Shown here: positions 7,138-54,234 of the stretch, in pieces
Layout of the letters: each line of letters starts with the position of its first letter
Position numbering within the stretch: position 1 is the first letter of the stretch
Assembly (NCBI GenBank): GCA_963708525.1
Contig: CAVPTH010000009.1
Span: forward strand, 273,351-337,350
Source: an uncultured Verrucomicrobiae bacterium
Lineage (GTDB): Bacteria > Verrucomicrobiota > Verrucomicrobiia > Limisphaerales > UBA11358
DNA length: 64,000 bases
Direction: 5' to 3'
The notes under the pieces: generated by a model
What the model saw: only the letters and a program-made list of their open reading frames with translations
Databases searched by the model: none
Told to the model about the DNA's origin: nothing
Program-made: the position numbers and the translations under genes

Positions 7138-8776
7138 ATGAATAACAATCCCACTTCAGGGCTGGTCATCCTCGTCGTCACAACTCTGATGCTGCCCATC
7201 AGCCCGGTTCGCGCGGCCAATACGAACGCCGTTTTCCATGTCGTCAGCACCAGTGACGAGCCGATGGTCCCGGGCAAGTTTGCGCCGACCTGGGATTCGT
7301 TGAAGCAATACCAGTGCCCCGAATGGTTCCGTAATGCGAAGTTCGGCATCTGGGCGCACTGGGGACCGCAGTGCGAGCCTGAGGACGGTGACTGGTACGC
7401 GCGGTTAATGTATTTTACCAACACCTCGCAGTATCGATTTCAGCTCCAGCACTACGGGTCGCCAGCCGATTTTGGGTTCAAGGACGTCATCCACGAATGG
7501 AAGGCCCAGAACTGGGATCCGGACAAACTGCTGGCCCTTTACAAACGCGCCGGAGCGCAATACTTCATGGCCCTGGCCGATCACCATGACAACTTTGATA
7601 ACTGGGATTCCAAATACCAGCCCTGGAATTCCGTGAAGGTCGGGCCGCGCAAAGACCTTATCGGCGGCTGGGCCGAAGGCCGCGCGCAAACAGGGCCTGT
7701 ATTTTGGCGTGAGCGTTCATGCGTCACATGCCTGGACGTGGTATGAGCCCGCGCAGGATTTCGACGGCAAACTGACGAAGGCCGACGGCCAGGGGAAATG
7801 GTGGGACGGTCTCGACCCGCAGGATTTGTATGCCCAAAACCACACGCCCAGCGCGAATTATCAAAAGGTGAGTTCAATTTTCAATCGCTGGTACTGGGAT
7901 AACGGCGCCAGCATCCCGGACGAGGCTTATTGCAACCGATACTACAACCGCACGATGGACCTCATTGAGAAGTATCGCCCTGACCTCATTTACTTCGATG
8001 ACACGGCGCTGCCGTTGTGGCCGATCAGCGACGCGGGTCTGAAGCTGGCCGCGAATTTTTACAACCTTAACAACCAGTGGCACGGAACCAAGGACGACGG
8101 CGTGCTGTTCGGGAAAATCCTGACGCCCGACCAGCGTCAGTGCATGGTGTGGGACATCGAACGCGGGCAGGCAAATGCAATAGAGCCGTTGCACTGGCAA
8201 ACCGACACCTGCCTGGGCAACTGGCATTATGACCGGAAGATCTACGAGCGACACGGTTATAAAACCACGAAGACGGTCATCCAGACCCTGTCTGATGTCG
8301 TCAGCAAGAACGGCAACCTGTTGCTCAGCGTCCCCGTGCGCGGCGACGGAACCATTGACGACGAGGAAGTCAATATCGTTGAAGGTATCGCCGGCTGGAT
8401 GGAGGTGAACCGGGAATGCATTTTCGATACGCAGCCATGGAAAATCTTTGGCGAAGGCCCGGCGTCGGCAGGTGCGAAGTTGAGAGCGGAGGGATTCAAC
8501 GAAGGCAAAGGCAAACCATTCACGGCGGAGGATTATCGGTTCACGCTGAAAAGCAACACGCTTTACGCGATTGAACTGGGTTGGCCGACCAACGGAGTGA
8601 ACATCAAGTCGCTCGGCAAATCCGCCCATTTACTCGAGGGAAAGATCCGCAAGATTGAACTGCTTGGCAGCGGAGAGAAAATCAAATGGAAGCAAACCTC
8701 GGACGCGCTGGTTATCGCTCAACCGAAGAACGCGCCGAACAATTTCGCTGTCGTTTACAAAATCACGGCCAGGTGA
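7138..8776 (+). pseudogene. GH29 alpha-L-fucosidase with signal peptide, one +1 frame break near 7675-7683
   Basis: ORFs 7138..7746 and 7709..8776 join as ...DLIGGWAE / AARKQGLYFGVSVHASHAWTW. GH29-type motifs are KFGIWAHWGPQ and ALADHHDNFDNWDS. Confidence 0.8.
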
Positions 8777-8822
8777 GTTTGGCCGGCAGAACCATCCGCC
8801 CGGGCGATATTCGGGCCAACTG

Positions 8823-8896
8823 CGTAGCGGCGTCTCGGCAGAACGCCGCATTTCTCCGGCTTTTCGGATGGCGGCTTTCTCCCGAAAGCCGCTACG
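8823..8896 (+). repeat. REP-like element with CGTAGCGGC / GCCGCTACG termini
   Basis: CGTAGCGGCGTCTCGGCAGAACGCCGCATTTCTCCGGCTTTTCGGATGGCGGCTTTCTCCCGAAAGCCGCTACG. It ends 1 nt before the ribD ORF ATG. Confidence 0.85.
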
Positions 8897-10093
8897 ATGC
8901 TGGCAATGTCTGATACCCGATTCATGCGCCTCGCTTTGCGCCTCGCCCGGCGCGGCCAGGGGATGACCTCGCCCAACCCGATGGTCGGCGCAGTGCTGGT
9001 GAAAAGCGGTAAAATTATCGGCCGCGGCTGGCACCGGCGCGCCGGACTGCCCCATGCGGAAATCGAGGCACTTCACGACGCACAAAGACACGGCCACCAT
9101 CCCAAAGGTGCGACACTTTATGTGACCCTCGAACCGTGCAGCACGCAGGGACGCACGCCGCCCTGCACCGACGCCATTATTGCCGCGGGCATCAAACGCG
9201 TGGTGGTGGGCGCGCTGGATCCGAACCCGAAGCATTCCGGCCGGGCATTCAAGATTTTGCAGCGTGCCGGAATTGAAGTTTTTGGACTGCGCCGACACGT
9301 CGGCGCTTTGAAAAGCGGTGACATGTCACCGCACTCCAAATTAGCAAACGAATGCACCCGGCTGAACGAAGCTTTCAATCACTGGATCGTTCATCGCACA
9401 CCGTTCGTCACCGTCAAAGCCGCGATGACACTGGATGGGAAAATTGCCACGGTCAAAGGCGAATCGAAATGGATTACGGGCGAAAGAGCGCGGGCTTACG
9501 GAATGAAACTGCGGCACGAAAATGATGCGATTCTGGTCGGCATCAACACGATCCTGGCGGATGATCCGAGCCTGACGGCAAGGACGAAGATAGAGGATCG
9601 AAGAGGGAAGATAGCAAAGCCGGTTCGGAGGATTGTTCTGGATTCAATGGCGCGGACGCCGTTGAAAGCAAAAGTTGTGAGCGACAAATTCGCCCAACTG
9701 ACAACCATTGTGGTAAGCAAACAAGCACCCAAAAACCGTGTGGCCGTATTGGCCAGGCAGGTGAAAGTCCTGGTGGCTCCGACAACTGATTCAAAATTCA
9801 AAATTCAAAATTTAAAATTGGATTTGAAGTGGTTGCTCAAAAAACTGGGTTCGGAAAACGTCACCAGCCTGTTGGTGGAAGGCGGTGGTGAAGTGAACGC
9901 TTCCTTCTTGCTGGGTGGATTCGCCCGGCGCGTGGCGTTTTTCTACGCACCGAAGATTCTGGGCGGACGGGATTCGCTCAAAGCCGTGGCCGGTGAAGGC
10001 GCCAGGAACCTCAACGAAGCCCTCCAACTCCATGATATTGAATGGAAACAGCTCGGCCCGGATTTGTTGCTGACGGCGCGGGTGGCATCGTAG
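8897..10093 (+). CDS. ribD: bifunctional riboflavin biosynthesis deaminase/reductase RibD
   Basis: 398 aa. Deaminase zinc motifs HAEIEAL and TLEPCSTQGRTPPCTDA; reductase part VTVKAAMTLDGKIA ... LLVEGGGEVNASFL. The start may instead be the ATG at 8906 (MSDTRF). Confidence 0.9.
   Translation: MLAMSDTRFMRLALRLARRGQGMTSPNPMVGAVLVKSGKIIGRGWHRRAGLPHAEIEALHDAQRHGHHPKGATLYVTLEPCSTQGRTPPCTDAIIAAGIKRVVVGALDPNPKHSGRAFKILQRAGIEVFGLRRHVGALKSGDMSPHSKLANECTRLNEAFNHWIVHRTPFVTVKAAMTLDGKIATVKGESKWITGERARAYGMKLRHENDAILVGINTILADDPSLTARTKIEDRRGKIAKPVRRIVLDSMARTPLKAKVVSDKFAQLTTIVVSKQAPKNRVAVLARQVKVLVAPTTDSKFKIQNLKLDLKWLLKKLGSENVTSLLVEGGGEVNASFLLGGFARRVAFFYAPKILGGRDSLKAVAGEGARNLNEALQLHDIEWKQLGPDLLLTARVAS
9289..9332. 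repeat. double palindrome inside ribD
   Basis: GCGCCGAC-AC-GTCGGCGC (9289-9306) and GCGGTGAC-AT-GTCACCGC (9315-9332), 8 nt apart. Translated in-frame as RRHVGALKSGDMSPHS. Confidence 0.8.
9790..9824. repeat. heptamer array TTCAAAA x3 plus TTTAAAA inside ribD
   Basis: TTCAAAA TTCAAAA TTCAAAA TTTAAAA TTGGATT. Translated in-frame as DSKFKIQNLKLD. Confidence 0.8.
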
Positions 10094-10212
10094 CCGCGTT
10101 CGTGAGAACGCGGATTTTGCACTGATTGTCCGCGCTTTCACCAGCGCGGCTAAAACTGATTGGAAGCAATCACGACTCGACGGCGTCTCGCTCCGTCGCT
10201 AATTTGGCTTAA

Positions 10213-10824
10213 ATGTTCACGGGCATCGTTGAAGAAACGGGAACGGTCGAGCGCATCCGGCCGACTGCGAAATCCGTTGAACTGACGATCCGTGCCGCTA
10301 CTACCGGGCGTGATTTGAAAGTCGGGGGCAGCCTGGCAGTGAATGGTTGTTGCTTGACGGCCGTCAAGCTTGCCACGCGCGGCAAATCCCGGCTGGTGCA
10401 ATTCGATCTGCTTCGCGAGACGTGGCGGCTCACCAATCTCCAGTTCGCCGGGCCGGGTTCGCTCGTGAATCTGGAGCGGCCCCTGCGGGCTGACGGCGAG
10501 TTCGGCGGGCATTTTGTGACCGGGCACATTGACGGTCTGGGCAAAATCATCCGTTGGGAACGCGCCGGTCAGGACCACCTGCTGGATATCGCCGCGCCGG
10601 CAGCGGTGATGCGATATATGGTTCACAAGGGCTCGGTTGCCGTGGACGGCATCAGCCTCACGGTGGCAGCGGTTCAAAAGAGAAGTTTCCGCATTTGGAT
10701 CATTCCACATACCTTTGCCGTAACCGCCTTGCGTGAACGAAAGGTCGGTGATGCCGTGAACCTGGAGGCGGATTTGCTGGGCAAATACGCAGAAAAATTC
10801 ATGGCTGCCCGCCGCCAAAAGTGA
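10213..10824 (+). CDS. ribE: riboflavin synthase alpha chain
   Basis: 203 aa. MFTGIVEETG start and two lumazine-binding repeats (GGSLAVNGCCLT / GSVAVDGISLT). Confidence 0.9.
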   Translation: MFTGIVEETGTVERIRPTAKSVELTIRAATTGRDLKVGGSLAVNGCCLTAVKLATRGKSRLVQFDLLRETWRLTNLQFAGPGSLVNLERPLRADGEFGGHFVTGHIDGLGKIIRWERAGQDHLLDIAAPAAVMRYMVHKGSVAVDGISLTVAAVQKRSFRIWIIPHTFAVTALRERKVGDAVNLEADLLGKYAEKFMAARRQK

Positions 10825-53016: not shown

Positions 53017-54234
53017 TCAGGGTAACGATTTCAGGAAGTTCAAAAGAAGATTCTTGCCGCGCTCCAGCGATGCCAGCGAAATCCATTCGTCGGTCGTATG
53101 CGCCTGTGCAGCATCGCCGGGGCCGAACACCACGCTCGGAATTCCGCCCGCCGACAATATCGCCGCGTCGCAAAAGAAATGAACGCCGACAGGTTTTGAT
53201 TGACCCACGCATTTCATGAATTGGCGAACGAGCGGCAATCTGTGATTTGTTTCCAGCGGCAGCGCCGGCGCGAGTTTTTTGTCAGCGATGGTCGCCGAAA
53301 AATGTTTTGACCGGAGAAATTTCTGGATTTCACGCTTCACTCCGGCCTCGGTTTCGCCCGGCAATGTACGACGGTCAATCGTGATCGTGCAGTAGTCGGG
53401 CACGATGTTCGCCTGTTGGCCGCCGCAGATCATGCCCACGTTCACTGTCGGCAAGCCGAGCAACGGATGACGACGGCGGCGCTTCAAATCCGCCGCGTAA
53501 TCCGTCTGAAGCCAGTCAACGATGCGCGCCATTTCGTGAATCGCATTTTTGCCGAACTGCGGCGTCGCGCCGTGCGCCGCCACACCGCTCGCCTCCAGTT
53601 CCAGCCACAAACTGCCCTTGTGCGCTGTCACGACTTGCAAATTTGTGAACTCGCCGACGATAGCCAAAGTAGCGCAGCCGTCCCGGCTGCTGCGGCAGAC
53701 TGGAATTTGCAGGCGATACGCCTGCGCTACCAGCGCGCGTGAACCGGCCTGGGCGTGTTCTTCATCCACCAATCCCGCGAAAACAATTTCGGTCTCCCGC
53801 GGACGTGATTTTGATTCTGCCACTTCGCAAAGCGCGGTAAGCATGGCGGCGACCGAACCTTTTGTGTCGCATGCGCCACGACCATGCAGGCGACCGTTTT
53901 TCTGCCGCGGTACAAAGTGTGAATCCTCCGCATTGACCGTGTCGAGATGCGGTGCAAGCAGGATGGTCCGGCGGATCTTAGTTCGTGGTCGGAGACGCGC
54001 GATCAGATTGGAGCGCCCGGACAGCACCTTTTGAAACTCGACTTCGAGTCCGGCCCGGCGGGCGACTTTGGCGAGAAAATCCGCAACGTTCTTTTCACCA
54101 AACTTGGCCGGGACGACCTGCCGGTCGTCCGAGCCCGCGCGGCAGTGCGGCCCTGTCGAATCTTGCTGGGCGAAGGCGGGATTCACACTGGGGATGGCGA
54201 TGAGTTCGGCCAGGAGCTTTTCAGTACGCGTCAT
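53017..54234 (-). CDS. M20-family metallopeptidase (ArgE/DapE-like deacylase)
   Basis: 405 aa. LIAIPSVNP ... LLAPHLDTV ... HGRGACDTKG ... LVDEEH ... IVGEFT ... HTTDEWI. Confidence 0.85.
   Translation of the reverse strand: MTRTEKLLAELIAIPSVNPAFAQQDSTGPHCRAGSDDRQVVPAKFGEKNVADFLAKVARRAGLEVEFQKVLSGRSNLIARLRPRTKIRRTILLAPHLDTVNAEDSHFVPRQKNGRLHGRGACDTKGSVAAMLTALCEVAESKSRPRETEIVFAGLVDEEHAQAGSRALVAQAYRLQIPVCRSSRDGCATLAIVGEFTNLQVVTAHKGSLWLELEASGVAAHGATPQFGKNAIHEMARIVDWLQTDYAADLKRRRRHPLLGLPTVNVGMICGGQQANIVPDYCTITIDRRTLPGETEAGVKREIQKFLRSKHFSATIADKKLAPALPLETNHRLPLVRQFMKCVGQSKPVGVHFFCDAAILSAGGIPSVVFGPGDAAQAHTTDEWISLASLERGKNLLLNFLKSLP
53674..53725. repeat. two short hairpins inside the M20 peptidase gene
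   Basis: GCAGCCG-tcc-CGGCTGC (53674-53690) and GCAGGCG-ata-CGCCTGC (53709-53725). They encode part of YRLQIPVCRSSRDG on the minus strand. Confidence 0.45.

Follow-up and report, generated by a model that had tools for sequence, protein, structure and literature searches.

The closest precedents for the element described here are the REP/REPIN-RAYT systems, represented by the REP sequences and BIMEs of Escherichia coli with TnpA-REP (PDB 4ER8) and by the REPINs of Pseudomonas fluorescens (PMC3116915, PMC3337134). Intragenic REPs bearing GTAG or CGTC tags were surveyed by Di Nocera et al. 2013 (PMC3733652) and are most numerous in the verrucomicrobium Opitutus terrae, which has the largest number of intragenic GTAG REPs, and in Rickettsia conorii; intragenic REP dimers encode 20-30 residues, and the authors take such inserts to be neutral, decorating proteins that are modular. 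The classic in-frame case is that of the Rickettsia palindromic elements (RPE; Ogata et al. 2000, as cited in PMC3733652 and PMC3184786), and repeats inside coding sequences also include BRE of Bordetella and RUP, BOX and SPRITE of the pneumococcus (reviewed in PMC3184786). The subject of this analysis is a 60-nt pair of palindromes that is read in frame within the ribD gene of an uncultured Verrucomicrobiae bacterium. The window, i.e., the whole stretch of 64,000 nt that was analysed, corresponds to C9:273351-337350, on a contig of a 3.43-Mb assembly (labelled G000) that is 73% complete.

We consider it highly probable that this doublet is a REPIN-type element from a RAYT-linked family, present as an old in-frame copy in a ribD slot that several families have occupied. 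It shares with the REP/REPIN-RAYT systems short GC-rich hairpin repeats, inverted monomer pairs able to form one long hairpin, a single-copy HUH/Y1 transposase gene flanked by repeats and copies that are mostly extragenic, and its A and B monomers pair head to head as do the Y and Z REPs of E. coli BIMEs. It departs from those systems in its head, GGAST (TTTGGAGT/TTTGGACT), with no GTAG or CGTC tag, in numbering about 30 loci (in an incomplete assembly) rather than hundreds, and in the RibD copy being translated and persisting as an orthologous copy across species with conservation at the level of its stems. Judged by sequence, the element thus has the attributes of a REPIN/RAYT system apart from a GTAG tag and a high number of copies.

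The comparison with other in-frame repeats is similarly mixed. The survey of Di Nocera et al. provides the precedent, also within the Verrucomicrobia, of monomers and dimers in frame in known genes; the window case differs in its tag and in having a codon position used by several families, nested replacement and synonymous constraint. As far as the citing papers describe them, RPE are likewise palindromic selfish DNA tolerated in frame in functional genes, but they are ~105-146 bp long, reside in an intracellular alphaproteobacterium and have no known dedicated transposase, whereas the window element is 60 nt and RAYT-associated; length and host phylum set RPE-1 to RPE-8 apart from it. BRE, RUP, BOX and SPRITE are also small and structured, and are now and then found fused to open reading frames (ORFs) or inside them, but unlike the REP doublet of the window they resemble miniature inverted-repeat transposable elements, with terminal inverted repeats and target duplications, and no slot behaviour has been described for them. 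An in-frame REP insert as such is therefore known. A limited literature search found no multi-family slot at one codon position, no nested-replacement intermediates and no pairing-dependent synonymous constraint on a translated copy, and slot turnover and hairpin-level constraint, as they appear from the alignments, seem not to have been described.

A sequence-only reading of the window had pointed to two perfect palindromes with 8-bp stems, 8 nt apart, and to the peptide into which they are read through, and both were correct. The palindromes proved to be the cores of a larger unit, as 8-nt outer arms on either side bring the element to 60 nt (Table 1). The layout is TTTGGACT-hairpin-TTTGAAAA-hairpin-ACTCCAAA, and the frame-0 peptide, FGLRRHVGALKSGDMSPHSK, comprises RibD residues 129-148. 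In each monomer, the GC-rich hairpin has GAC-NN-GTC as its core and TTTGGAST/ASTCCAAA as its tail. The whole can fold into one long hairpin (the minimum-energy form) or into two hairpins closed by the outer stem, the folding energy being -31.2 kcal/mol (z=-4.4) for the RNA and -18.8 kcal/mol (z=-4.0) for the DNA.

Table 1. Window coordinates of ribD and of the parts of its palindromic element, followed by the types of element that occupy the same site in RibD orthologues.
Feature	Position in window	Strand	Details
ribD, bifunctional pyrimidine deaminase / uracil reductase	8897-10093	+	398-aa ORF, intact; HAE and PC..C zinc motifs present
Whole REPIN-like element, two inverted subfamily-2 REP monomers	9281-9340	+	family alignment; nhmmer match E=6e-19
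Outer left arm, TTTGGACT	9281-9288	+	pairs with 9333-9340; one C·C mismatch, conserved across the family
Hairpin 1, GCGCCGAC-AC-GTCGGCGC	9289-9306	+	monomer A2, inverted; perfect 8-bp stem
Spacer, TTTGAAAA	9307-9314	+	8 nt; 7 nt in most intergenic G000 copies
Hairpin 2, GCGGTGAC-AT-GTCACCGC	9315-9332	+	monomer B2; 18-nt perfect palindrome
Outer right arm, ACTCCAAA	9333-9340	+	8 nt; inverted partner of the left arm
Slot type T1 (the window ribD element)			peptide FGLRRHVGALKSGDMSPHSK
Slot type T2			peptide GSSRRDDRTAQRAVPT
Slot type T3			peptide WGE…GSRGRSPHQ
Slot type T4			peptide GRARHSVRA…RRAEDCAPY
Slot type T5			peptide GSAGVPPA…RRRDAGAP
Slot type T6			peptide FGVPRSRG…RLKAELQT
Slot type T7			peptide SPSP…GERDGVRG

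The element belongs to a repeat family of its own genome. The assembly contains 38 instances of the motif GCGnnGACnnGTCn'n'CGC, for which base composition predicts ~0.55, and a control with the reversed pattern produced 0 matches in 41 genomes, so the palindromes are not the work of chance; all 38 copies are 18-nt hairpins in which the variable positions are complementary. The hairpins lie in 24 clusters, of which 14 are doublets with the same outer arms and a spacer of 7-8 nt. A profile search with nhmmer recovered 29 family loci (E<1e-3), including three-hairpin variants of ~90 nt, and the majority of copies lie between genes or next to gene ends, with at least three being intragenic. Of the 13 strict doublets, ten are 59 nt long, with a spacer of 7 nt, and the three with an 8-nt spacer, and hence 60 nt, include both of the intragenic doublets, i.e., the one in ribD and one in a GcvT-like gene. 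The sequence-only reading was to fall if the genome had no further copies of the palindrome pair, and these numbers show that it does have them.

Two monomer types, always paired, make up the doublets: type A (GCGGCGAC… then AGTCCAAA) and type B (GCGCGGAC… then ACTCCAAA). By its stems (GCGCCGAC and GCGGTGAC) the RibD copy falls into a subfamily, here called 2, that is distinct from subfamily 1 (GCGGCGAC and GCGCGGAC), to which all other G000 copies belong. The differences between the stems of the two subfamilies are paired and complementary, amounting to covariation at the level of the family, and subfamily-2 copies are found at 1-3 other loci in sister species.

The probable mobilising enzyme of the family is encoded at C22:2043-2570, a single-copy ORF of 175 aa that was matched over nearly the whole profile by the NCBIfam model REP_Tyr_transpos (NF047646; E=4e-20). 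Among PDB entries the ORF product matches 4ER8, E. coli TnpA-REP, best, and its HUH (HYH) and YxxxNP motifs, those of an HUH/Y1 transposase, align there. Direct three-hairpin members of the GACATGTC family lie on both sides of the gene (C22:1941-2029 and 2599-2688), and to judge by this order of gene and repeats, C22:1941-2688 is a REPtron arrangement. On the same contig, family copies between C22:63161 and 84438 are placed with mirror symmetry (63161/84369 identical, 68601/78987 and 72037/75574 inverted), which suggests a large inverted duplication of ~20 kb.

The protein that hosts the element has retained its recognisable parts. The insert is in frame and free of stops (60 nt being 20 codons), and RibD keeps its zinc motifs and both Pfam domains, the deaminase (PF00383, residues 5-105) and RibD_C (PF01872, residues 169-392). 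Bacillus subtilis RibD (PDB 2B3Z) matches the window protein at E=1e-77. Relative to the solved RibD proteins of B. subtilis and E. coli, which are without the segment, the window protein has 16 more residues exactly at the element ('IEV fglrrhvgalksgdmsphsk LANE' against 'IEV-R-EG-ILADQ'), in good agreement with the figure of about 17 given in the sequence-only reading for the comparison with E. coli. In the alignment to 2B3Z the insert falls in a 3-residue turn. The site does lie between the Pfam domains, as had been proposed, but it is not a free linker: it is a loop that joins the final beta-strand of the deaminase core to the long helix entering the reductase domain. An AlphaFold2 model built on a 59-sequence alignment (mean pLDDT, the predicted local distance difference test, 58) renders residues 131-144 as coil with pLDDT <50 between a strand (127-130) and a helix (145-167), so the 20-residue insert peptide is probably unstructured and in a surface loop.

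RibD proteins from 40 relatives, 80 species representatives and 120 metagenomic sequences allowed the state of this loop to be followed. The empty site reads …G-I-E-V-V-H-G-I-L-A-D-E-C… (V-H/R-G-I/V-L) and was found in 42 of the 70 species representatives that could be parsed. Relative to it, the element replaces the four residues VHGI (12 nt), for a net gain of 16 aa. Such orthologues with an empty site (…EV-VHGI-LADEC…) support the interpretation, offered in the sequence-only reading, of an RPE-like palindrome in a permissive loop, although the further notion that the element is merely tolerated was too weak for a copy that is old, has conserved stems and sits in a slot. Every peptide-bearing orthologue for which DNA was available has the palindromes, with 0-3 stem mismatches, while many orthologues read VHGIL. 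Neither of the two conditions that the sequence-only reading had set for its own refutation therefore holds.

Filled sites do not all contain the same element. Among 149 orthologues the loop holds T1 in 45, T3 in 40, T2 in 16, T6 in 10, T4 in eight, T5 in six and T7 in four, and is empty in 16; every insert of the species representatives is strongly self-complementary (-17 to -88 kcal/mol), and members of the T2, T3 and T4 families are also found elsewhere in G000. A tree of these 149 RibD sequences, which is poorly resolved in places and may have been built in part on columns from the insert, requires at least 41 changes of slot state, the possible minimum being eight, and for T1 at least eight changes are forced by well-supported branches alone. 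The turnover can be seen at close range in L207 (P0003), a close relative whose RibD gene is 93-98% identical to that of G000 in most 60-nt windows: the same boundaries, GAAGT|…|TTRGC, enclose T1 in G000 and T2 in L207, with divergence raised for ~35 nt to the right, indicating that the element was either exchanged like a cassette or brought in by recombination over a short tract. As far as the alleles compared reveal it, the ribD loop is a slot that stands empty in some of them and in the others is taken up by a palindromic element, of which there are at least seven unrelated types. None of the ~300 orthologues examined had a RAYT gene in frame within the slot.

The age of the RibD copy became apparent from DNA obtained for 16 T1-type alleles (that of G000 and 15 others), which come from different contigs and metagenome-assembled genomes; a metagenome scan for further T1 DNA had at least five T1 loci (L117, L118, L119, L120 and L121) among the matches listed. 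All 16 alleles have the same junction, orientation and frame, subfamily-2 stems and no VHGI, even though the RibD proteins of the 15 other carriers are only ~75-91% identical to that of G000. On this evidence the copy is old and not a recent accident. An assembly artefact was rejected, the same insert being present on 16 contigs with diverged flanks.

The 16 alleles also revealed an unusual distribution of variation. When synonymous codon pairs are compared at their third positions, the element has an identity of 0.91 and its 40-codon flanks have 0.56 and 0.59, so that it is the top outlier of all 20-codon windows in ribD (the others are at 0.584 ± 0.055, with a maximum of 0.726). Codon periodicity is lost within it (0.8/0.6/1.0 across the codon positions, against 1.1/1.0/5.4 in the left flank), and minor alleles per site number 0.38 in the hairpin stems and 0.69 in the outer stem, compared to 2.08 in the loops and spacer (p=2e-4). 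As the synonymous sites directly beside the element are diverged, a co-transferred recombination tract is not the explanation. Nor do these patterns suit an ordinary lineage-specific linker peptide under selection at the protein level, in which the palindromy would be incidental. Amino-acid identity in the segment (0.835) does equal that of the flanks (0.83), as such a peptide would have it, but the reading is refuted by the conserved third codon positions, by variation that tracks pairing and not codon position, by the 29 related DNA copies elsewhere, most of them non-coding, and by the same DNA being read in other frames and on the opposite strand in other genes; we find it scarcely credible.

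A more serious contender is concerted evolution, whereby gene conversion from other copies, or repair templated by the hairpin itself, would keep the RibD copy near its consensus in the absence of selection. Variation is indeed limited to positions that vary in the family (loops and spacer centre), and the orthologous intragenic copies in the M20 peptidase and PdxJ genes are also more conserved than their flanks. Yet a donor of subfamily 2 was not found in G000 and sister genomes have only 1-3, repair templated by the opposite arm would be expected to produce fixed compensatory double changes in roughly half of all cases and there are 0 among 12 stem changes, and in G041 and G042 decayed RibD copies exist beside intact copies elsewhere. 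We judge concerted evolution to be unlikely. Our leading guess for the cause of the conservation is constraint on the hairpin, favoured over both concerted evolution and re-insertion because G000 is without a detectable donor copy and because decayed RibD copies and intact other copies coexist in G041 and G042.

Such a constraint would be readily understood if the hairpin in the ribD mRNA or DNA had been exapted for a host function, e.g., as a translational pause between the folding of the domains, as a site for mRNA stability or processing, or as a protein-binding site. Exaptation would explain purifying selection on the stems and the retention of some structured element in the slot, and it is in keeping with the synonymous stem conservation and lost codon periodicity, with the strong structure of every slot occupant and with a location exactly between two catalytic modules. 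It sits poorly with the 60% of the order's species representatives that carry no insert, with occupants that are unrelated in sequence and copies that decay, and with Rfam, a scan of window positions 8500-10400 having found no family over the element and only a weak, sub-threshold match to Acido-Lenti-1 (E=0.07) 3' of the stop codon, at one of the hairpins that follow ribD. Host function thus seems a rather remote prospect, and one to which we give a little less credence than to concerted evolution.

Insight into how one occupant might give way to another came from composite alleles. In the RibD genes of L120 and L121, T1 is followed directly by the right arm of T3, a layout that is also suggested by the peptides P0019, P0021 and P0025, and in L170 the same T3 right arm follows T2, with P0050 and P0056 suggesting likewise. 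At L218 (G042:C2:~3123050-3123220), a locus unrelated to ribD, a subfamily-2 T1 doublet lies in the central loop of a complete T3, and this nesting is direct evidence of T1/T3-type elements inserting into one another. Insertion would proceed by RAYT-mediated transposition of a single-stranded hairpin. Turnover would begin with a new element inserting into the hairpin of the resident and would be completed by in-frame loss of the older arms, with short-tract recombination between alleles probably contributing. Since ribD is presumed to be needed, the only survivors would be stop-free inserts of a length divisible by three. One ancestral event, followed by succession of this kind, would account for VHGI being missing in all of the filled states.

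The same intermediates could be enlisted for homing, in which T1 would have been re-inserted repeatedly into an occupied slot and the identity of its copies would reflect a conserved master sequence rather than constraint at the locus. T1 is polyphyletic on the RibD tree, with the forced changes noted above, and both the nested insertion into a resident at L218 and the composite at L120 are what homing would leave; the diverged synonymous sites beside the element would then mean that breakpoints coincide with its ends, and the single orientation could be enforced by selection, as the reverse orientation gives a TGA stop in this frame. Homing is at odds with the left junction shared by 16 of 16 copies (codon V | TTTGGA), all lacking VHGI, with a resident family in G000 that is of subfamily 1 when the RibD copy is of subfamily 2 and no other such copy was found, and with G041 and G042, in which the RibD copies have decayed and the subfamily-2 copies at other loci are intact. 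On balance we hold homing to be improbable, and retain the reading of an old REPIN-type copy in a slot where elements succeed one another.

Several observations weigh against that reading or limit its reach, beginning with the imperfections of the RibD tree mentioned above and the low confidence of the RibD structure model. The RAYT scored 72 bits against an NCBIfam cutoff of 80, and is also under the Pfam cutoff for Y1_Tnp. A second subfamily-2 member was not found in the G000 assembly, 73% complete as it is. No target duplication is visible and no transposition event was directly observed. With the VHGI codons gone from all filled states, simple insertion is insufficient, so that either a further deletion or one ancestral event has to be postulated, and with the element standing in place of those 12 nt, a clean insertion footprint cannot be reconstructed. 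The 16 orthologous T1 copies contain no compensatory double substitutions, and stem changes that preserve pairing through G·U (6 of 12) are not clearly enriched, so at the ribD locus covariation lends no support to an RNA structure. Furthermore, some carriers have decayed copies (three stem mismatches in L037, degenerate peptides in P0040 and P0086), and hence the hairpin constraint is not universal.

Genes other than ribD have also taken in members of these families. In sister genomes an identical 60-nt T1 element of subfamily 1 is present in an M20 peptidase gene in three species (L208-L210), at a site that is empty in G000. The M20 peptidase gene of the window (53017-54234, minus strand) has a different twin-hairpin element, GTAGCGCAGCCG…CGCCTGCGCTACC, in frame at 53670-53732, and the slot used there in G000 holds a T6-like element in L208. 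As both sites and occupants differ among species, the M20 gene too has several slots. Subfamily-2 doublets are in frame in prmC (L213), pdxJ (L214/L217) and panC (L215/L221) of sister genomes, with the pdxJ and panC copies each being orthologous in two species; the pdxJ copy is read on the opposite strand and the panC copy in another frame, so that across the three genes the same doublet DNA is translated in three different ways. In-frame copies at orthologous sites in several genes indicate that in-frame life is common for this family in the clade. Within G000, the GcvT-like folate-binding protein has its doublet in frame at C28:85331-85395 in a gene whose frame looks broken further downstream, and a three-hairpin copy is in frame at C10:82217-82305, inside the Pfam DUF58 domain of a vWA protein.

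Taken at its most ambitious, and here we are decidedly tentative, the evidence could mean that the ribD loop is a heritable slot for translated REPINs, with the resident hairpin serving as the landing site and unrelated families succeeding one another in frame, and with the occupant under purifying selection as a hairpin, be it for a host function (e.g., a translational pause or mRNA feature) or as a maintained RAYT substrate. If this were true, the similar slots in the M20 peptidase gene, pdxJ, panC and prmC would make it a general mode of REPIN life inside the housekeeping genes of soil Verrucomicrobiota. Neutral decoration, the usual view of in-frame REP and RPE copies, does not extend to an orthologous translated copy in 16 RibD genes whose stems evolve several-fold slower than neighbouring synonymous sites, nor to one codon position that has housed at least seven element families over time, and the nested and composite intermediates suggest a route of replacement. 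The alleles constitute an alignable natural series for addressing questions in REPIN/RAYT biology, such as the insertion target and the selective maintenance of individual copies. They are also a warning to annotators and to those who predict structures that in these phyla a variable 'linker' can turn out to be mobile DNA.

Some lesser features of ribD and its surroundings deserve mention. The reductase domain has two further hypervariable loops, at window positions 9587-9619 and 9789-9819, the second of which is a tandem repeat of a heptamer (ATTCAAA x4.4) encoding SKFKIQNLKL; at both loops, orthologues carry low-complexity repeats of other kinds or palindromic inserts. Directly 3' of the ribD stop codon, window positions 10094-10160 contain the GC-rich hairpins CCGCGTTC…GAACGCGG and CCGCGCT…AGCGCGG. 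In one family of the order, the deaminase and reductase parts of RibD in the relative G033 match separately on different contigs, which suggests split genes.

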